The notes: a model not told the origin generated them from the letters alone. Shown: positions 1 through 8,534, counted from the stretch's first letter. The stretch is DNA of 64,000 bases from an uncultured Gemmatimonadaceae bacterium (GCA_963817955.1 CAWFQK010000004.1:992001-1056000), one strand, 5' to 3'. A program made the numbers and translations.

Positions 1-1
1 T

Positions 2-1018
2 CGACGTATTGCAGAGCGTGATCACGCTGATGTTGCGGTCCGGAAACCGGACCAGCGAGCTGCGGTACCCGCCGTAGGCGCCGCCGTGTGAATACGTCTT
101 GAGCCCACGGTAGCGCCCGATCATGATACCGAGCGCATACGGCACGGGCTGCCCGTCATTCAATCGGCCTGGCGTCTCCATGGTCGCGATGCCGGACTTT
201 CCGCCGACCTTGCCGCTGCTGAAGTTCGCGTCCCATTTGGCGAGGTCGACGACGGTGGAATACGCACCGCCATCGCCGACGACGTCGAACTCCGGCTGAT
301 TGAGGTGATACGTCCCGCCGGTTGGTTGGTAGCCAAGTGCACGCTGCGGGATCAGCGTCGTATGGTCATCGCGGAACTCCGTGTGCGTCATGCCCAGCGG
401 CTTGAAAATGCGTTCCGCGGCGAACTCACGGAGCGAAGTTCCCGACGCGCGCTGCACGACGATGGCGAGCAGCGCGTACCCCGTATTGCTATACAGGAAC
501 TCGTCGCCAGGCACAAAATTGAGCGTCTTCTGGCGCGCGACGAGCGAAAGAAATTGTTGTTCCGTGAGTTGTCCGTCGCTCGGCCAACCCGAAACGCCGA
601 GCAGCGTGAAATAGTCGCGTAGGCCGCTGGTGTGATTCAGTAACTGGCGCAACGTGATCGTCCGACCGAAGGACGGGACTTCCGGCACCCACTTGCGAAC
701 GGAATCATCGAGCGACAGCCGTCGGTCCTGCGCCAGAAGCACGATGCTCATCGCCGTGAACTGCTTGGAGAGAGAGGCGATGTAGAAGCGCGTCTCCGGC
801 GTGATCGCCACGTCGTGCTCGAGATCCGCCACGCCGTAGCCCTTGGCGAACGTTAGTGAGCCGTTTCGCGACACGCCAACGGCACAGCCCGGTGCACGAG
901 CCACTGCGTAGGGGGCGAGAATCGTATCCACCCAGCGCGAGGCTGTGTCCGGTTGGGCGAGTTGGGCGCCCGCGGGCACAACTGACAGGAAAATGGCGAG
1001 CACAGCACGGCGTAGCAT
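2..1018 (-). CDS. Serine hydrolase, beta-lactamase/class C-like family, secreted (3' end runs off the window)
   Basis: Not in the ORF track because it is open at the edge. Manual translation from ATG 1018: MLRRAVLAIFLSVVPAGAQ...PGCAVGV...GYGVADLE...TRFYIASLSKQFTA (SxxK), FLYSNTGY (YxN), HGGAYGGY. Confidence 0.9.
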   Translation of the reverse strand, partial: MLRRAVLAIFLSVVPAGAQLAQPDTASRWVDTILAPYAVARAPGCAVGVSRNGSLTFAKGYGVADLEHDVAITPETRFYIASLSKQFTAMSIVLLAQDRRLSLDDSVRKWVPEVPSFGRTITLRQLLNHTSGLRDYFTLLGVSGWPSDGQLTEQQFLSLVARQKTLNFVPGDEFLYSNTGYALLAIVVQRASGTSLREFAAERIFKPLGMTHTEFRDDHTTLIPQRALGYQPTGGTYHLNQPEFDVVGDGGAYSTVVDLAKWDANFSSGKVGGKSGIATMETPGRLNDGQPVPYALGIMIGRYRGLKTYSHGGAYGGYRSSLVRFPDRNISVITLCNTS

Positions 1019-1310
1019 CGAGCCTCCTTTCAAAAACCCTTCCGCCAGAAATCAAACGTGTCCGGTCGTCAAACGGTTCACGCTGGCGCCCGATTTGCAC
1101 GCACCAGCGACGTTGAGGCGGCACCCTTCGGGATCACCCGCTGGAGACCTGCATGGCCGAAATTCGCGTCGAGCCAAAACGCCGAAGCACAGCGTGGCTC
1201 TGGATCCTGCTCGTGCTCATCGTGGCCGCGGCACTTGCCTACTATTTCTTCTATTATCGGAACGGCTGAACCAACATAAGGTTTCGACCGGCCGAGGGGT
1301 TGAAGCATTC

Positions 1311-1865
1311 ATGGACACCAACGATCGTGAATCGCGCGACGCCGCAGGCGTCGGCCCGTACGTACGCGCACGCGAGAAGCTGGTCCCTCTCAGCACGCTC
1401 GGTTCATGGAAAGTATCGGACGGTGAGCCGGATATCCGCGATTGGGAGGTGCGAACGGTAAGTAACCGCCAGCTCGGCACCGTCAAGGACCTGCTCATTG
1501 ACACGGACGCCGGCGACGTCGTCATGCTCGATGTCGATCTGCCGGAAGGCACGCAACATACCTACGTGCCGATTCGGGTGGTGCACATCGATCGCGAGCG
1601 CCGAGTCATTCTGATGGATTCTGCCGATCTCCCCGCTTCGGAGCTGCCACGCCAGGTATCGATCAATCGCACCGACCCGGCGGATGGTTCTCGCGTCGCA
1701 CGATACCCGAAGACCGATGATGAGGTCATCGTCGACCGGCCAACGATCGCTGATAACGCGCGCAGTTCCGATCACCCGGCGGACGACACGATCGGCGAGC
1801 TACCGCCCTCCGACCGGCGCCGGGCTGAACGGCGGCACATCGATCGGATGAGCACCGATCTGTGA
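1311..1865 (+). CDS. PRC-barrel domain protein
   Basis: Part of ORF 945..1865; ATG 1311 follows GAGGGG; DIRDWEVRT...LGTVKDLLID...YVPI is a PRC-barrel pattern. Confidence 0.75.
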   Translation: MDTNDRESRDAAGVGPYVRAREKLVPLSTLGSWKVSDGEPDIRDWEVRTVSNRQLGTVKDLLIDTDAGDVVMLDVDLPEGTQHTYVPIRVVHIDRERRVILMDSADLPASELPRQVSINRTDPADGSRVARYPKTDDEVIVDRPTIADNARSSDHPADDTIGELPPSDRRRAERRHIDRMSTDL

Positions 1866-1931
1866 TTGGCGTTACGTGCCGCCAAGGCGACGCGACAACC
1901 GTGTCGCACGTCACGTGAGTGGCAACGGCCA

Positions 1932-1961
1932 TTGACTGAATCGAGCCCCCGACTCTAGGTT
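1932..1961 (+). promoter_or_regulatory. Putative sigma70 promoter for the leader/tRNA-Asn transcript
   Basis: TTGACT (1932-1937), 18 bp, TAGGTT (1956-1961); ATG lies 8 nt after the -10 box. Confidence 0.55.
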
Positions 1962-1968
1962 GAATTTC

Positions 1969-2034
1969 ATGACGACACAGGCCAGTAACCGCCATCGCAC
2001 GAATAATCCGGACTCCTCGAGGAGCCCTGGCTAG
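1969..2034 (+). CDS. Putative leaderless attenuator leader peptide MTTQASNRHRTNNPDSSRSPG (21 aa)
   Basis: ATG at the predicted transcription start; Asn codons AAC, AAT, AAT; overlaps mutually exclusive hairpins upstream of a terminator. Confidence 0.5.
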   Translation: MTTQASNRHRTNNPDSSRSPG

Positions 2035-2060
2035 CGCGCGCGTTCGTCATCAACACACGC

Positions 2061-2092
2061 GGCCCGCCAGAGCATCGGCGGGCCTTTTTGTT
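2061..2092 (+). terminator. Intrinsic terminator (attenuator) upstream of tRNA-Asn
   Basis: GGCCCGCC-AGAGCATC-GGCGGGCC followed by TTTTTGTT. Confidence 0.8.
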
Positions 2093-2118
2093 GCTCGTGA
2101 CGTGGCAGGAACATTCGA

Positions 2119-2191
2119 TGGGGCGTAGGTCAATTGGCAGACCACCTGACTGTTAATCAGGATGTTCCAGGTTCGAATCCTGGCGCCCCAG
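2119..2191 (+). tRNA. tRNA-Asn (anticodon GTT), CCA not encoded
   Basis: Cloverleaf: acceptor TGGGGCG/CGCCCCA, D-stem GGTC/GACC, anticodon arm CCTGA-CT GTT AA-TCAGG, T arm CCAGG-TTCGAAT-CCTGG, discriminator G. Confidence 0.95.
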
Positions 2192-2284
2192 TGACGGGAG
2201 AAACAAAGGACCAACGTACACGATGTACAGTGGCCCTTCGTGCATTTCCCTATCATTGTCCGGCGTGCAGAACACACTCGGCCG

Positions 2285-2512
2285 CTATACCGATTTGAGT
2301 TCGCCCTCGAGGTAGCCGAGCACCGCAAACGTGAGCGGGATCAGCGCAAGCACCACGATGGCCGACGCGAGGATCCATCGCTGATGCAAGCGTCCGCCAA
2401 GGCCGGGGAGCACGGTTCCAACGAGCAACGCCACCCCGACGAGGGTGGCGTCAAGAAATAGCCCGAGGATCACGCCCGAAATCGTGCTCCAGAACAGGAT
2501 GGAGAGGCGCAC
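2285..2512 (-). CDS. Small membrane protein (2 predicted TM helices)
   Basis: 75-aa hydrophobic ORF starting 12 nt after the L,D-transpeptidase stop on the same strand. Confidence 0.6.
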   Translation of the reverse strand: MRLSILFWSTISGVILGLFLDATLVGVALLVGTVLPGLGGRLHQRWILASAIVVLALIPLTFAVLGYLEGELKSV

Positions 2513-2523
2513 GAGCGAACCGG

Positions 2524-3069
2524 TTACGGCTTGATCTGAATCGGCGCGCCGTTCGGGACCATGCGCCAGATTTCCTCAATCTCGGCGTCGGTGACGGCAA
2601 TGCAGCCCTCGGTCCAGTCGAACTCGCGGTGTGCGGCACCAAGGTCAGCGTAAGCAGGCGGCAGACCATGGATCATGATGTCACCGCCCGGCGCGAACCC
2701 CAACGCGTGGGCGCGCCGCTGGTGCGGCACGTCCGGATACGAGATGTGCAGCGACATATGATACTTGCTCGCCGCGTTGCGCGAGTCGATGTGAAACAGG
2801 CCTTCCGGCGTGCGTCCATCACCAATGCGGATCTTGTCGCCCTTTGGCTCTTTGCCAAGTGCCACCTGGAACGTGCGGACGGGCACACCAAGCTGATACA
2901 GCGTGAGCGTGTGTTTCTCTTTCTCAACGACGATGCTGTCGGCAATGATCCTGCCCTTGATTCCCACCACCGGAGTTCGGCGAATGGTCGGCGAGACTCC
3001 TGGCGCGAGCATCTTCGCGGAATCGCCCGAGGCGACGAGCAGCAAGGCGCTGAACAGCGGTAGCAGCAT
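2524..3069 (-). CDS. L,D-transpeptidase family protein (YkuD domain)
   Basis: Signal peptide; GDGRTPEG, IMIHG...WTEGCIA catalytic His/Cys motif. Confidence 0.88.
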   Translation of the reverse strand: MLLPLFSALLLVASGDSAKMLAPGVSPTIRRTPVVGIKGRIIADSIVVEKEKHTLTLYQLGVPVRTFQVALGKEPKGDKIRIGDGRTPEGLFHIDSRNAASKYHMSLHISYPDVPHQRRAHALGFAPGGDIMIHGLPPAYADLGAAHREFDWTEGCIAVTDAEIEEIWRMVPNGAPIQIKP

Positions 3070-3219
3070 GTTGAGAGAATTCAGGACGACGCTGGGGACT
3101 TGGCCCGGGAGGGACGTGCGTGACGCGTGTCACTAAATCGACGCTCAATGTACTGCCCGCGTCACGACGGGATCCAGCGAAGCTGCACAAACCGGCCAGC
3201 GGACCCAGCAGTCTGTAGG

Positions 3220-3771
3220 CTATGGCACCGCCAACCGATCAAAATACGCCTTTCGGATTTTCGCAACTTTTGGTGCGATGACGATCTGGCAGTAAGGCTG
3301 CTCCTGGTTCTGGCCATAATAGTTCTGATGGTACCGCTCGCCGGGATAGAACGTGGTCATCGGCGCGAGCTGTGTAACGATCGGACTATCCCAGACCTTG
3401 TTGCGGTTGAGCTCGTCGATCATTTGCCTGGCCACCTCGAGCTGCTCAGGCGAATGGTAGAAGATGGCCGAGCGATACTGCGTGCCGACATCGGACCCCT
3501 GCCGATCGCGTGTCGTAGGGTCATGCGCGGTGAAGAAGACGCCGAGCAGATCTCGGAACGAGATCACGGACGGATCGAAGGTGACCTGCACGACTTCAGC
3601 ATGGCCCGTCACACCGGCGCAGACGTCGCTGTACGTCGGGTCGAGATACTGACCGCCCGCGTAACCCGACTCGACCTGCTCCACGCCGCGCAACATGCGG
3701 AAGACCGCATCGAGACACCAGAAACAGCCGCCGCCGAGTGTGGCAACCTCGGTGTTCTTCTTCTCGTTCAT
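3220..3771 (-). CDS. msrA: Peptide-methionine (S)-S-oxide reductase
   Basis: GGGCFWC, TGHAEVVQV, HDPTT..RQGSDVGTQYRS, YHQNYY motifs. Confidence 0.97.
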   Translation of the reverse strand: MNEKKNTEVATLGGGCFWCLDAVFRMLRGVEQVESGYAGGQYLDPTYSDVCAGVTGHAEVVQVTFDPSVISFRDLLGVFFTAHDPTTRDRQGSDVGTQYRSAIFYHSPEQLEVARQMIDELNRNKVWDSPIVTQLAPMTTFYPGERYHQNYYGQNQEQPYCQIVIAPKVAKIRKAYFDRLAVP

Positions 3772-3794
3772 TCACGACCTCCCTACGCTCTCAC

Positions 3795-4658
3795 TTACGC
3801 AGCCATCCCATCCTTGAGCACGTCTGCCGTATCGCTCTCGCGCAGGCGCTTGAGGGCGCGATCGCGGAGTTGTCGCACACGTTCGCGCGTCACATTCAGT
3901 TCACGCGCGATCTCCTGAAGCGTCATCGGGCGATTGCCCTCGAGGCCGAAGTACAGCGTCAGCACGAGGCGATCGCGCGGTGACAGCACCTCGAGGGCGC
4001 GGGCGATGGCCTCACGCCGCGAGTCGGTCTCAATGCCGCCAGGCAACGCGTCGTCTTCCTCGTTCCGATCGAGCACCAGCGTCTCACCGAGGGTCCGCCC
4101 CCGGTCCGCCGACGCGGGCTCGTCGAGCGAACGCACGGGTTGCAGCAGCGCGACCAGGCCGCGCGTCACATCGATCGATAGGTTGGCCACGCTGGCGATC
4201 TCCTCCTCGTACGGCTCGCGCGACAGCTTCTGGCGAAGCACTTCCTGTGCTCGTGACACGCGGGAGAGGTCGGCGGCGCGGTTGAGCGGAACTTGTACGG
4301 TACGACTTTGTCGCTGAACGGCAGAGTGCAGCGCCTGACGGATCCACCAGACCGCATAACTGATGAAGTTGACTCCCACGTCAGGATCGTACTTGTCCGC
4401 GGCGCGCACGAGACCAGCGTTCGCCTCGCTGACCAAATCGCCGAGCGGTACCCCGCGATTCTGGTACTGCTTGGCCACAGAGAAGGCGAACCGAAGATTC
4501 GCGCGGATCAGCTCGGATCGCGCGCGCTCACGAATCTCGTCCGTCCTGGCGCGGCGCATGTCGCGCGCCAGTTCCTTCTGCGCCTGGGCGGTCAGCACCG
4601 GTTCGCCGCGCAGTTCCTCGATGTAGAGGTCCAACAGGTCGCGATCGTCGTTCGTCAT
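3795..4658 (-). CDS. RNA polymerase sigma-70 family factor (RpoD/RpoS-like, lacking region 1.1)
   Basis: LDLYIEEL (1.2), LIRANLRF..SVAKQY, FISYAVWWIRQ (region 2), TLQEIARELNVTRERVRQ (region 4 HTH). Start is ATG 4658 or 4664. Confidence 0.93.
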   Translation of the reverse strand: MTNDDRDLLDLYIEELRGEPVLTAQAQKELARDMRRARTDEIRERARSELIRANLRFAFSVAKQYQNRGVPLGDLVSEANAGLVRAADKYDPDVGVNFISYAVWWIRQALHSAVQRQSRTVQVPLNRAADLSRVSRAQEVLRQKLSREPYEEEIASVANLSIDVTRGLVALLQPVRSLDEPASADRGRTLGETLVLDRNEEDDALPGGIETDSRREAIARALEVLSPRDRLVLTLYFGLEGNRPMTLQEIARELNVTRERVRQLRDRALKRLRESDTADVLKDGMAA

Positions 4659-4947
4659 GTACATCGCTCGCCCCCGGCACCAAACGGCGCCGCAGTTGAT
4701 CCATATATTGATCGAGCACTGCCGGACGCGTCCGGTAGTACACGAATTGTCCGTCGCGCCGTGACTCCACGAGACCGGCGCTTGCCAACTCCTTCAGATG
4801 GTGCGAAATAGTCGCCTGCCTGACCGGAAAACACCCGCACAAACGCTGACAACCCATTTCCGATTGCCTGGCAATGTGCTCGAGAATCTCAAAGCGGCGC
4901 GGGTCGGCCAGCGCTTTCGCGATTCGTTGGAACTGCTCGACATCCAC
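4528..4947 (-). CDS. ArsR/SmtB family regulator (C-terminus probably over-extended by a 1-nt indel; natural end about 4655)
   Basis: KALADPRRFEILEHI...QATISHHLKELASAGLVESRRDGQFVYY winged HTH; GTG start at 4947. Confidence 0.85.
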   Translation of the reverse strand: MDVEQFQRIAKALADPRRFEILEHIARQSEMGCQRLCGCFPVRQATISHHLKELASAGLVESRRDGQFVYYRTRPAVLDQYMDQLRRRLVPGASDVHDERRSRPVGPLHRGTARRTGADRPGAEGTGARHAPRQDGRDS

Positions 4948-4972
4948 GGCGGTTCCACCCCACGATAGTGTG

Positions 4973-4996
4973 ATACATAGATAATCATCTAAGTGT
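4973..4996. promoter_or_regulatory. Imperfect inverted repeat, likely ArsR-type operator
   Basis: ATACATAGAT-AATC-ATCTAAGTGT (8/10 arm match), AT-rich, between the divergent arsR and aminotransferase genes. Confidence 0.55.
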
Positions 4997-5035
4997 ACCA
5001 TGCAAGCCGCCGCGCGGTTCCATTGTCTAGCTTTC

Positions 5036-6268
5036 ATGACCATGTTGACCACACCCGATTCCACCGCACCTCAGACGCTCCGCTCGGCCCGCTTGGTCCC
5101 AACGCGCCGCCTGACTGATTTGCCGACCTACGTGTTCGCCTGGCTCGACGAAATCAAGGCCGACGCCCGTGCACGCGGAATTGACCTACTCGATTTGGGA
5201 ATGGGGAACCCGGATCAGCCGACGCCGACGCCGATCGTCGACGTCATCACTGCGGCATACACCGATCCGCGCACGCATGGGTACCCCCCGTTCCGCGGGA
5301 CCGAGGAGTTTCGCCGCGCCGCCGCGTCGTTCATGCAACGCCGCTTCGGGGTGCATGTCGACGCAGACCACGAAGTGCTCTGCCTGAGTGGCGCAAAGGA
5401 AGGCATTGCGCACGCCACCATTGCCTTCGCGGACGAATCGACGATCTCGCTCGTGCCCAGCATCTACTATCCGGTGCACGGCCGCGCGACCGGACTCGTC
5501 GGCGGACGCACACACCTCATGCCGCTCATCGCCGAGCATGGGTTTCTGCCCGACTTCAACGCCATTCCGGCCGAAATACTCAGCGAGGCTCGGTTGATGG
5601 CGCTCAACTACCCGCACAACCCAACGGGCACGGTGGCGCCAATCGGGCTATTCGAGCAGGCGGTCACGCTCTGCCGCAAGCATGGCATCCTGCTCATCTC
5701 CGATCTCGCCTACAGCGAGCTGACGTTCGACGGACGCGTGGCACCCAGCGCCCTGCAGGTACCTGGTGCGAAAGACGTGACGATCGAGTTTCATTCCTTC
5801 TCCAAGACGTTCAACATGGCCGGGTCCCGCATCGGATTTGCCGTGGGCGGACGGGACTTGATCGACGCGCTGCTCGCGGTCCGAACGAACATGGGGTATG
5901 GCACGCCGGCCGCGGTGCAGGCCGGTGCCGCGTTCGCGCTCGATCACGTCGAGGAGTTGGAAAAGCCGGTGGTCGCGCGGTATCGCGAGCGCCGTGACGC
6001 GATCCTCGAAGGATTCCGCACGCTGGGATGGTGCTCGGAGGCGCCACACGGAACGATGTTCGTCTGGCTGCCGATTCCCGCCGGGTTCGCCGCACAGGAG
6101 TGGACCAAGCATCTCATCGACCGAGCGGGTGTCGTCGTCACACCCGGCAATGCTTTTGGTCCTGGAGGCGACAACTTCTTCCGTGTCTCATTGATTGCCG
6201 ATCCGCCAGTGCTCGCCCGCGCCATCGATCGACTCCGCGCCGCCGGGATTTGCTACGCGGGCGCGTAA
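5036..6268 (+). CDS. PLP-dependent aminotransferase class I/II (LL-DAP aminotransferase/AlaC-like)
   Basis: LGMGNPDQP, GAKEGI, NYPHNPTG, DLAY, SFSKTFNMAGSRIGF (PLP lysine). Confidence 0.9.
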   Translation: MTMLTTPDSTAPQTLRSARLVPTRRLTDLPTYVFAWLDEIKADARARGIDLLDLGMGNPDQPTPTPIVDVITAAYTDPRTHGYPPFRGTEEFRRAAASFMQRRFGVHVDADHEVLCLSGAKEGIAHATIAFADESTISLVPSIYYPVHGRATGLVGGRTHLMPLIAEHGFLPDFNAIPAEILSEARLMALNYPHNPTGTVAPIGLFEQAVTLCRKHGILLISDLAYSELTFDGRVAPSALQVPGAKDVTIEFHSFSKTFNMAGSRIGFAVGGRDLIDALLAVRTNMGYGTPAAVQAGAAFALDHVEELEKPVVARYRERRDAILEGFRTLGWCSEAPHGTMFVWLPIPAGFAAQEWTKHLIDRAGVVVTPGNAFGPGGDNFFRVSLIADPPVLARAIDRLRAAGICYAGA

Positions 6269-6326
6269 AGCGGCCCCGCGACCATGGCTCGACACGTGCA
6301 CCGCTGGCACGCATCGGAGGAATCAC

Positions 6327-6584
6327 ATGGCGAATGACGCAAAGGAGCGGGACGACCGGATCGAACCCGAAGGCCAGAACAACTCCCCGCAAGCGGACGG
6401 GGAAAGCGCGGTCCGGACCGCGGCGCAGGACACGCCTGCGATGAGCGAACCGCGCGATCCGGCCGCGGACGTTCCGGTACCGATCGCGATGTCCGCGGCG
6501 GAAATCGACGAGCGCGCGCAGGTGGTGGAGGCATTGCGAGATGCGTCGCCCGCTGCCGACGGCGAACCGCGCGCCAACGCATAG
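6327..6584 (+). CDS. Small acidic, probably disordered hypothetical protein
   Basis: Strong RBS GGAGG before ATG 6327; MANDAKERDD...; GC hairpin downstream. Confidence 0.55.
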   Translation: MANDAKERDDRIEPEGQNNSPQADGESAVRTAAQDTPAMSEPRDPAADVPVPIAMSAAEIDERAQVVEALRDASPAADGEPRANA

Positions 6585-6717
6585 TCCCATCCCGGCCGGG
6601 GTCACGCGGCGCCGGCCGGGTGACCCCGATTGACCCAGCACGCGGCAGCCTCAACCGGTGAATCACCGGGCAACGGTTAAACGGTGGCCGGTAACGCCGG
6701 TAACGTTTGACGTGTGC

Positions 6718-6906
6718 TCAGTACCTGCCTCGCCACTCCGCCGTCGCTTCGGGTACTAAACGCGCGCCCCATTGGCCGACTTCGAGAATGTAGTAGTCGC
6801 GGCGTAACGGATCGCGCGGATCGATCACTTCGTAGTTGGTGGGTTGCGGCTCGACCTTCACGGTCACGCCATTGCACTCCCCACCGACGCACTTGACCTG
6901 AATCAT
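6718..6906 (-). CDS. Small hypothetical protein (62 aa)
   Basis: MIQVKCVGGECNG...; protein-like composition; GAGGG upstream; follows 6931..7428. Confidence 0.5.
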   Translation of the reverse strand: MIQVKCVGGECNGVTVKVEPQPTNYEVIDPRDPLRRDYYILEVGQWGARLVPEATAEWRGRY

Positions 6907-6930
6907 GATCCAGCCCTCGTGAGCGAGCGT

Positions 6931-7428
6931 TCAGCTCGCCTGTTGAACGGCGGAACGTGATCCGCCAGTGAGAAAGCGCGGCCCACTGGAGCAGGCGCGT
7001 TCCACGGTTTCGGCAATGCTCTCCGGCAGACGTACCGCGCCACGGGCATGAGCCTCGAGCACGAGCCGGAGCGCACGATGCTGTCGGTCGTACGCCGAAA
7101 GGAGTTGCGCGCCGCCATCGGGCGACGACAACACGCCGTGGACGAGACGTTGGAGCGACGCCTGCTCGGACACATCCGACGATCCCGCCACGCACACTTC
7201 CAGGTTCCAGGCCGCGCGGTGGCCATCACATAGTCCCGCCCGCGCTGCGCGAGGCGCTTCCTGGGTGCACGCATCGCAGAGCGCGATCTCGCGCAGCAAG
7301 TCAGCACTCGGAACGAAGGACATTGGTTCTTCCTCAAGTACCTGTCTCAAGTCCCTCACCAATTCGATATCGCGAGTTGTTGCGCAAACCAGCTGGAGGC
7401 GACGGCGCGCGTTGGGTTCGATGCTCAT
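6931..7428 (-). CDS. Hypothetical protein with CxxC...CxxH possible Zn site
   Basis: 165-aa ORF containing LCDAC...LCDGH. Confidence 0.55.
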   Translation of the reverse strand: MSIEPNARRRLQLVCATTRDIELVRDLRQVLEEEPMSFVPSADLLREIALCDACTQEAPRAARAGLCDGHRAAWNLEVCVAGSSDVSEQASLQRLVHGVLSSPDGGAQLLSAYDRQHRALRLVLEAHARGAVRLPESIAETVERACSSGPRFLTGGSRSAVQQAS

Positions 7429-7631
7429 GGCATTCTGCTAGCGTCATTCGGCCGCGCCGCACGCGCAGACCGTGGGACGGCCGGGCTCCGGGTGCCCGGG
7501 TCCGTCACCACGGTCGCACGCTCTCTGCGTTGCCGAGTTAGTCGCAAGTTGTTACTCATCCACTCGACGTCCGTCAGAGGGATATGCGAAGGTGATGCGG
7601 TACCGCTCGCACCGGCGCTCGCTTCCAGATC

Positions 7632-8534
7632 ATGACTACGTCGCACCTGACCGTTCCCAACGCACTCGAGACGCTGGACCGCCACTGGGCGGTGAAGGTC
7701 GTCTCGAACGAGGATCGCAGCGCCGCCATCCGGTACGGCATGGGGGTGCTCGCGCGGCTGTGCAGCGGTGAGATCATCGACAACGTCCAGCCACCGCCCG
7801 AATTCGTCGTCCCACTCGCCGGCGCGTACGTCATCGCAGCGAGTGAGTGGCTCGACTTCGAGGGAGCAGCATCTCCGGCGATGCTGCTGTCCGCTGAACA
7901 AGACGCCCAGCGCACCGCACATATCGAGGCCGGATCCGACCGCGCCTTTATCCTCACCGCGGTGCTCCCCGTCGAACCCGACGAGCGTGTGGCGGGGCTG
8001 TATCGCGCCCTGCTGCTTGCGGGCCTCGCGCAGCTCGGACATAAGCAGACCGAGTTCCGCCACTGGCTGCGCGTGCATCAGGGTATCCTCTTTCCCGCAG
8101 ACGAAAGCGAAACGCCCTGGGATCTCGCGCTCCTGCGCCGCGTCGTCGAGCTGTGGATACACGTGCTCCGCGGAGCCGGACCGTCGGGGCTTGAGCACGC
8201 CATGGAGCTCGTCGCGTCGATTCGGGAAGATCGCTCGGTCCGCGAGTTCGAGTTCTTCGCCACCGTCGGTCCTGCGGACGAAACGCGCATGCGTTTCTTC
8301 ATGTTCACGCTCTTCCATCTGACTGAAGCGGCGACCGAACTGTTGCTCTTCCGCCTGCATGGTGAGCCGGAGCGCGTCGAGTCGCATCTCTACAGCCACT
8401 TCACGCTTGCACGCGATGCCGCTGGCGGTGATCCGCGCCGCGACGCCAGCTTCGATTGGCTGTATGAGGCGTCGCGCCGCGTCATCAGACAACGGACCGC
8501 GCAACTCGAGCTGATGCCCGAGAGCAGTCGTTAA
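7632..8534 (+). CDS. Hypothetical all-helical protein (300 aa)
   Basis: Long ORF with normal codon pattern; resembles, from memory, the N-terminal region of large Ski2/DEAD-box helicases. Confidence 0.75.
   Translation: MTTSHLTVPNALETLDRHWAVKVVSNEDRSAAIRYGMGVLARLCSGEIIDNVQPPPEFVVPLAGAYVIAASEWLDFEGAASPAMLLSAEQDAQRTAHIEAGSDRAFILTAVLPVEPDERVAGLYRALLLAGLAQLGHKQTEFRHWLRVHQGILFPADESETPWDLALLRRVVELWIHVLRGAGPSGLEHAMELVASIREDRSVREFEFFATVGPADETRMRFFMFTLFHLTEAATELLLFRLHGEPERVESHLYSHFTLARDAAGGDPRRDASFDWLYEASRRVIRQRTAQLELMPESSR

Follow-up and report, generated by a model that had tools for sequence, protein, structure and literature searches.

A candidate leader-peptide attenuator with a tRNA-Asn gene as its output in Gemmatimonadaceae

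Leader-peptide attenuation is classically represented by the trp, his, leu, thr, ilv, and pheA leaders and by pheM of pheST in Escherichia coli and Salmonella. To our knowledge, the leader-peptide attenuators described so far all regulate biosynthesis enzymes or a synthetase. A candidate element that departs from this pattern is located at positions 1932 to 2191 of a 64,000-nucleotide stretch from an uncultured Gemmatimonadaceae bacterium (GCA_963817955.1, CAWFQK010000004.1:992001-1056000), hereafter called the window. There, a short open reading frame (ORF) with asparagine codons and an intrinsic terminator are followed by a tRNA-Asn gene. Comparison with relatives and modelled RNA folding favor a ribosome-mediated (leader-peptide) transcription attenuator with the tRNA-Asn gene as its output, and the probability of this reading is put at about 80%. 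A first-pass annotation, made from the sequence of the window alone, had proposed that an Asn leader peptide chooses between an antiterminator and a terminator before tRNA-Asn. This core proposal is supported by the comparison, by folding, and by the presence, before a true asnB, of the same RNA platform carrying Asn-Asn-Asn in its leader.

The locus shares with the trp, his, leu, thr, ilv, and pheA attenuators and with pheM-pheST a short ORF, clustered codons for the sensed amino acid, the alternative pairings 1:2, 2:3, and 3:4 between successive RNA segments, and an intrinsic terminator. As in the trp/his-type leaders, the stall codons are placed just 5' of segment 1 and the stop codon stands beside segment 2. 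At the level of sequence and modelled structure, all the structural features that define a leader-peptide attenuator are present, namely the ORF, the clustered Asn codons, the terminator, and mutually exclusive pairings. Unlike the trp/his-type leaders and pheM, the product here is a tRNA gene, the leader mRNA is apparently leaderless, and there is no match to an Rfam leader family. The search with cmscan of positions 1-8000 against Rfam at E<=1 returned only the tRNA and one weak antisense chance match; the curated leader families (Trp, His, Leu, Thr, and others) gave no match in this region.

T-box riboswitches bind uncharged tRNA directly and need no translation. Saad et al. are said to have described, in 2013, a two-codon T-box of the clostridial tRNA-dependent asparagine operon. 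The window locus and this T-box would share the coupling of components that form Asn-tRNA to the charging of tRNA-Asn through a terminator/antiterminator switch. Unlike in the T-box, the sensor here would be a translated ORF, and the Rfam T-box riboswitch model has no match in 1-8000 at E<=1.

The closest known parallel in another respect is found in mycobacteria, where leaderless short ORFs encoding polycysteine are cysteine-responsive attenuators, according to a preprint (bioRxiv 10.1101/834739). The common features are a leaderless small ORF, consecutive codons for the same residue, and control of the genes behind it; one relative of the window bacterium even has a Cys-Cys-Cys leader. The mycobacterial ORFs differ in belonging to another phylum and in having protein-coding targets, with no tRNA output. 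In the full-text literature, from whose scope most subscription journals fell, no report was found of a leader-peptide attenuator before a tRNA gene, in agreement with the first-pass annotation, which knew of none having the cognate tRNA as its output.

The features of the locus, all on the + strand, are as follows.

1932..1961, + strand: promoter-like site, with the -35 box TTGACT (1932-1937), an 18-nt spacer, and the -10 box TAGGTT (1956-1961), recognized from sequence and conservation
1969..2034, + strand: leader ORF, apparently leaderless, of 21 codons and a TAG stop (2032-2034), with ATG at 1969 and the peptide MTTQASNRHRTNNPDSSRSPG
1987-1989, 2002-2004, and 2005-2007, + strand: Asn codons AAC, AAT, and AAT of the window leader; AAT AAT is the conserved putative stall site
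2008..2016, + strand: segment 1, CCGGACTCC, the 5' arm of the 1:2 hairpin, directly 3' of AAT AAT
2021..2031, + strand: segment 2, GGAGCCCTGGC, which serves as the 3' arm of the 1:2 hairpin and as the 5' strand of the antiterminator; the stop codon adjoins it
2039-2043 with 2057-2061, + strand: inner helix of the antiterminator, CGCGT with ACGCG, recognized from the sequence and, in relatives, by eye
2061..2076, + strand: segment 3, the terminator 5' arm GGCCCGCC (2061-2068) and the loop; GCCAG (2066-2070) pairs with CTGGC (2027-2031)
2077..2092, + strand: segment 4, GGCGGGCC (2077-2084) and the T-run TTTTTGTT (2085-2092), which forms the intrinsic terminator with segment 3
2119..2191, + strand: tRNA-Asn with anticodon GTT, found by ARAGORN and by Rfam RF00005 (71.4 bits), with U1-A72 and G73; CCA is not encoded

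The sequence features listed in the first-pass annotation are all present at this locus. The terminator scan gave a stem of 8 bp at 2061-2084, with GC pairs at 8 of 8 positions, followed by TTTTTGTT.

Recurrence, translation, and pairing of the leader

The observed layout is, as a matter of sequence comparison, far more than chance. The same layout recurs before the same type of tRNA-Asn in 45 genomes of 13 genera (a tally that includes L073, from a sister family, and L240). These carriers appear to be Gemmatimonadaceae and a sister family. BLAST of positions 1866-2230 against 61 relatives matched the tRNA in 49 of them. Many matches from the same genus span the leader, and many of these begin exactly at window position 1968. 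Thirty loci were fetched through the tRNA part of the query, and the leader is present at 26 of them. These 26 share a TTGAC/TAnnTT site, an ATG 6-7 nt after it, an ORF of 19-23 codons, a hairpin, CTGGC-TAG, and a GCCCGCCAG terminator.

Within the family, a covariance model (R1) built from the leader, whose columns include AATAAT, matched 26 of 151 genomes, from 14 of 77 genera; in a sample drawn across the class, it matched 6 of 151. ARAGORN placed a tRNA-Asn directly downstream of 19 of the 28 extended family matches; a twentieth, L041, is cut by the end of its contig. In the genome of the window, R1 at E<=10 found the window copy alone; the next match (E 0.5) is the 3' end of a peptidase-like gene with its terminator. 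Inspection by eye revealed no leader 5' of either asnS or the AsnB-family paralogue of this genome. An IUPAC pattern scan of genome contigs listed mostly chance terminators. Six of the 80 loci with DNA from that scan match R1 at E<=0.01; among those listed, the best four are recorded as uncultured Gemmatimonadaceae, Gemmatimonadetes, or Gemmatimonadales, and the weakest two (Gammaproteobacteria and Rhizomicrobium) look like chance. The second covariance model (R2), restricted to the platform, matched 40 of the 151 family genomes at E<=0.001. Among 17 new or weak R2 matches inspected, 14 were ordinary gene-end terminators or lacked a leader ORF. The family samples include unpublished genomes: G186 in the R1, R2, and AsnB surveys, and G061 and G087 in the AsnB survey.

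Several signs point to translation of the ORF. They are counted over 44 leaders, which include kin and are thus not independent. The ORF starts with ATG in all 44 and has 18-23 codons. The stop codon is TAG in 37, TGA in 5, and TAA in 1, and it is lost in 1; a stop adjoining segment 2 is kept in 43 of the 44. In a structure-blind MAFFT alignment, insertions in the ORF 5' of the hairpin have lengths of 3, 6, or 9 nt, one of them contributing two extra AAT codons, and gaps after the stop can be of any length. A 1-nt insertion in the hairpin loop of L015 and L020 is accompanied by a new in-frame stop a few bases from the usual position. The N-terminal half of the peptide varies freely except for Asn. 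Conservation of the C-terminal codons extends to each codon position, and these codons fall on the paired RNA segments.

Asn accounts for 219 of 928 leader codons (23.6%), versus 2.64% of 741,224 codons in a proxy gene set consisting of 1466 long ORFs of this genome with high GC3. In the other two frames of the leaders, Asn codons make up 0.2% and 0.5%. AAT outnumbers AAC in the leaders (147 versus 72), and AAT represents 31% of Asn codons in the proxy genes. When codons are numbered backwards from the stop, position -9 is Asn in 38 of the 44 leaders and position -10 in 29. Relatives thus conserve both the ORF and its Asn codons, a check that the first-pass annotation had proposed. The TAG stop of the leader (2032-2034 in the window, and its homologues) is far more uniform than other sequence that is not paired; this uniformity may come from RNA structure or from the choice of release factor.

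The 1:2 pairing is a local hairpin (2008-2016 with 2021-2029) directly after AAT AAT. In the alignment, 81.6% of its cells are paired, a level reached by 0 of 500 shuffles, and four pairs show compensatory change, for example CTCG/CGAG and CCTCG/CGAGG. It replaces the long-range 1:2 pairing of the first-pass annotation, between GGCCAG (1980-1985) and CTGGCT (2027-2032), whose conservation is no better than that of shuffles: 55.8% of its cells are paired, a share attained by 491 of 500 shuffles.

The other two pairings of that annotation hold. In 2:3, the partners of segment 2 (GGAG..CTGGC, up to the stop codon) are the loop and the final three bases of the terminator 5' arm. Within the genus, 83.5% of the cells are paired, versus 25-42% when one strand is slid; over 56 distinct rows, which include other genera and paralogues, the values are 70.9% versus 26-40%. 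The 56 rows contain 23 cells with a double change, a count reached by 2 of 500 shuffles. Compensatory changes in relatives, which had been suggested as a check, are therefore present in both 1:2 and 2:3. Column pair 118-186 is an example, with AU in 10 rows, GC in 10, GU in 3, CG in 2, and UA in 1. In other genera the 2:3 helix has 10-11 bp, as in GGAGGTCTGGC with GCCAGGTCTCC. At the place of the inner helix, relatives have CGCG/CGCG or CTCG/CGAG, as seen by eye in a poorly aligned region and with no formal count. The 3:4 terminator is paired in 99.5% of cells.

Folding with and without a ribosome, also suggested earlier, gave results in line with these pairings. The stalled state was modelled as the minimum-energy fold of an RNA that ends before the terminator 3' arm, with a ribosome on the codon before segment 1; 2:3 was scored when 5 or more pairs joined segment 2 to segment 3 and two or more of the three GCC bases took part in them. 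By this measure, 2:3 formed in 43 of 44 leaders. In ribosome-free folds of the full-length RNA, 38 of 44 leaders contained the terminator and 36 the 1:2 hairpin. For the window, the fold energies are -18.4 kcal/mol for the terminator hairpin, -8.0 kcal/mol for the 1:2 hairpin, and -21.5 kcal/mol for the stalled state. In the alignments and modelled folds, then, 1:2, 2:3, and 3:4 are conserved and mutually exclusive, and they are placed so that a stall would free segment 2.

Copies of the platform before other genes

The hairpin, the stop codon, and the GCCCGCCAG terminator also occur together before protein-coding genes in relatives, with other residues at the stall position. The copies are listed by locus.

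L054: leader MTTATQRFNRNNNR... (Asn-Asn-Asn) before asparagine synthase B (NF006949, 732 bits, cut-off 499)
L072: leader with two Asn-Asn pairs before a NifA-like sigma-54 activator (484 bits, below its cut-off)
L075: leader with Trp at codon -9 before trpE
L241: leader MTLRCCCLAPRIRETQA (Cys-Cys-Cys) before a gene of the nitrite/sulfite-reductase family (below cut-offs)
L236, L052, and L058 (three genomes): Leu-rich leaders, with 4 to 8 Leu, before gltB
L053 (from the unpublished G186), L055, L056, and L057 (four genomes): leaders with two Lys before a class I/II aminotransferase
L059: platform copy before a HAD-IB phosphatase

The leaders of gltB, the aminotransferase, the HAD phosphatase, trpE, and the reductase contain about 9 Asn in about 200 codons, as counted by eye. 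The platform lies 9-51 nt before the starts of the asnB, gltB, and aminotransferase genes. In the genome of the window, it is found only as the tRNA-Asn copy.

The correspondence between the residues of the leader and the gene downstream, as read from these sequences, is what argues most strongly for specific sensing of amino acids. Taken together, the copies would make up a group of leader-peptide attenuators with leaderless ORFs, all using one RNA platform, in Gemmatimonadaceae and their kin; the leader residues fit the downstream genes.

Proposed mechanism and rival explanations

The ATG at 1969 follows the -10 box by 7 nt, which would make the ORF leaderless. Among the 44 leaders, a regular expression found TTGAC-N16-19-TAnnnT ending 5-7 nt 5' of the ATG in 30, and most of the others are similar by eye. 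Because the promoter-like sites end 5-7 nt before the ATG, the leader mRNA probably begins at the start codon. Transcription would start at or beside the ATG, and a ribosome would load at the 5' end of the leaderless mRNA. With ample Asn-tRNA-Asn, the ribosome would reach the TAG at 2032-2034 and there cover segment 2 together with the first part of the inner helix. Segments 3 and 4 would then be able to pair as the terminator, and the polymerase would halt in the T-run, short of the tRNA. If Asn-tRNA-Asn is scarce, the ribosome would instead stall with the AAT codons at 2002-2007 in its decoding site, covering segment 1 and leaving segment 2 free. Segment 2 would pair with GCC of the terminator 5' arm and with the loop, aided by the inner CGCG helix. 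With the terminator blocked, the polymerase would read into tRNA-Asn, and RNase P and the CCA-adding enzyme would mature the transcript. If there is no translation, the 1:2 hairpin and the terminator would both form.

Slow ribosomal reading of Asn codons thus probably leads to more tRNA-Asn being made. Such a circuit would be a homeostat: when Asn codons are decoded slowly, more of the tRNA for these codons would be supplied. What we infer in this mechanism is where transcription starts, that the ORF is translated, which RNA the ribosome covers, and how the switch responds to charging.

Several observations weigh against attenuation, and they are considered together here. A search for sequencing runs containing this stretch listed four DNA runs from soil and no RNA run; the best of the four contains 0.20 of the sampled words. 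Four loci with this type of tRNA-Asn (L023 and L028-L030) have no leader. The stop codon is lost in L006. With 3 of 21, the window leader is lower in Asn codons than any other leader of its genus, although it retains the invariant AAT AAT. AATAAT columns are part of both covariance models, so that the members found by the models lean to Asn codons; this bias does not touch the 26 members retrieved by way of the tRNA section of the query. Binomial P values for the Asn enrichment overstate the case, since kin are not independent. The outer 2:3 helix occupies only 3 bases of the 8-bp terminator stem, and a shuffled control, from the ribosome edge to the terminator, reaches the 2:3 measure in 323 of 880 folds (36.7%). 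The generic sigma-70 scan returned 0 sites in 1-5000 and did not call the promoter at 1932-1961. Because of this, the promoter reading rests on conservation; the TTGACT-N18-TAGGTT motif reported in the first-pass annotation is present and conserved. Finally, extra tRNA would not be obviously useful if free asparagine limits charging.

Two of the four loci lacking the leader, L028 (G018) and L023 (G034), show a T-run behind a GC hairpin, along with a promoter-like site, but no Asn ORF. They look like degenerate leader remnants. These remnants suggest that the attenuator was lost in some lineages.

The rival that survives best is an attenuator of the same build that senses the queuosine state of the GUU anticodon (AAU versus AAC) or the overall speed of translation, rather than the charging of tRNA-Asn. 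It is considered unlikely. AAU is a wobble-read codon, the one most dependent on queuosine for its decoding. AAT predominates among the stall codons, in spite of its low share of Asn codons in the proxy genes, and one platform serves several genes, both of which suit this rival. However, only Asn is strongly enriched: codons for His, Asp, and Tyr, the amino acids of the other queuosine tRNAs, are sparse in the 44 leaders by eye, and the paralogous leaders carry Trp, Cys, and Asn to match their downstream genes, which argues for sensing specific to the amino acid. Of the queuosine alternative offered in the first-pass annotation, what stands is the preference for AAT, which is real.

It is somewhat less probable still that the ORF and the terminator constitute an independent gene, for a micropeptide or a small RNA, beside a tRNA-Asn that has its own promoter. 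The leader does carry its own promoter-like site and terminator, and the C-terminal ...RRSG of the peptide is conserved. However, this conservation extends to all codon positions and overlaps the paired RNA, and the N-terminal half keeps only its Asn. The spacer bears on this rival in both directions. Measured from the last base of the terminator stem to where the tRNA begins, the distance is 8-15 nt in 8 of the 44 leaders and 16-50 nt in 22; it is longer than 50 nt in 14, and the window has 35 nt. In the leaders with short spacers the T-run abuts the tRNA, and there is therefore no room for a promoter behind the terminator. The 14 spacers of over 50 nt could house a second promoter, which counts for this rival and against attenuation. 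A separate promoter before the tRNA, named in the first-pass annotation as fatal to its proposal, thus has no room in 8 leaders and has room in 14. The short distance of the platform to asnB, gltB, and the aminotransferase genes also disfavors an independent small gene.

Long spacers show features of their own. In one clade within a genus (L021, L022, and L024-L027), an extra 90-155 nt lies between the terminator and the tRNA, with a conserved block GTGTGACGTTGG...TTCGGCAAGTCTGGACGATCGA. This block may act as a second promoter, as a site of processing, or as some other RNA element. The spacers of L047, L049, and L051 contain short tandem repeats (CACTAGTCA-like or GATAGCC/GATACCT-like), which differ between genomes of one genus.

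That the hairpin is simply the terminator of the upstream PRC-barrel protein gene, which lies on the same strand and ends at 1865, 196 nt 5' of the hairpin, with the small ORF arising by chance, is highly improbable: the upstream gene varies among relatives (the C-terminus of a permease in most) with the same leader behind it, the promoter-like site sits between the PRC-barrel gene and the ORF, and the ORF with its Asn codons is conserved across the 13 genera.

tRNA genes are usually treated as housekeeping genes under growth-rate control. If attenuation by the Asn leader is true, the cell sets the level of one tRNA by sensing the speed of ribosomes on its own codons, a direct feedback from decoding to supply. 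The case is unusually testable, with 13 genera, a platform on amino-acid genes that provides built-in positive controls, and a second tRNA-Asn for comparison. It would also add Gemmatimonadaceae, a little-studied lineage, to the known users of leaderless leader-peptide attenuation.

Asparagine metabolism and the second tRNA-Asn

The assembly, which is 94% complete, contains 51 tRNA genes according to ARAGORN, and two of them are tRNA-Asn(GTT). The second tRNA-Asn(GTT), at C2:231499-231572 (L195:400-473), is very different in sequence and follows the end of a uvrA-like gene. A promoter-like TTGACT-N17-TACCTT lies 9 nt upstream of it, and a terminator-like hairpin with a T-run is seen downstream by eye. 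Both tRNA-Asn genes carry U1-A72. The second type is also present in 8 genomes of the same genus and 3 of another family; this distribution refers to the 17 loci checked with ARAGORN, as BLAST with the second tRNA-Asn cross-matched tRNAs for Phe, Met, and Lys. In the nearly closed genomes G020 and G005, the second type was not found among the matches listed, and those checked were tRNAs for Phe, Met, and Lys.

The genome encodes AsnRS (467 bits), GlnRS (686), GatA (545), GatB (525), and one bacterial AspRS (663). Neither AsnA nor an E. coli-type AsnB was found in it. The best match to E. coli-type AsnB is 30% identical, is located among glycosyltransferase-like genes, and passes the broad cut-off of TIGR01536. 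AsnB above the NF006949 cut-off occurs in 2 of 151 family genomes, and one of them is the genome whose asnB has the Asn leader. According to PMC4206432, the combination of AsnRS, GlnRS, and GatCAB with a lone non-discriminating AspRS and neither AsnA nor AsnB means that asparagine is made on tRNA-Asn. The gene content suggests that asparagine is made on tRNA in this genome as well. The U1-A72 pair promotes this amidation on tRNA-Asn, according to PMC1635274.

One possible, still tentative interpretation is that the attenuated tRNA-Asn serves as an inducible scaffold for tRNA-dependent synthesis of asparagine. The element would then be a biosynthesis attenuator whose "enzyme" is a tRNA, and one of a family-wide set on a shared platform (Asn, Trp, Cys, Leu, and possibly Lys). 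When Asn-tRNA is short, extra tRNA-Asn with U1-A72 would be transcribed, loaded with aspartate, and amidated, independently of free asparagine. Basal demand would be served by the second tRNA-Asn, which has a promoter-like site of its own. Such a role would explain why extra tRNA helps when Asn-tRNA is short, and it may link the regulation of tRNA genes with tRNA-dependent asparagine synthesis.

Downstream of the tRNA-Asn in the window, the next genes are on the opposite strand: a small membrane-like ORF, and then a YkuD L,D-transpeptidase. Elsewhere in the same genome, at C4 near 477,500 and at C7 near 9,300, tandem CCCTGTCATCC(C/T)GAGCG(A/G)AGC units follow the ends of genes and resemble a dispersed intergenic repeat.

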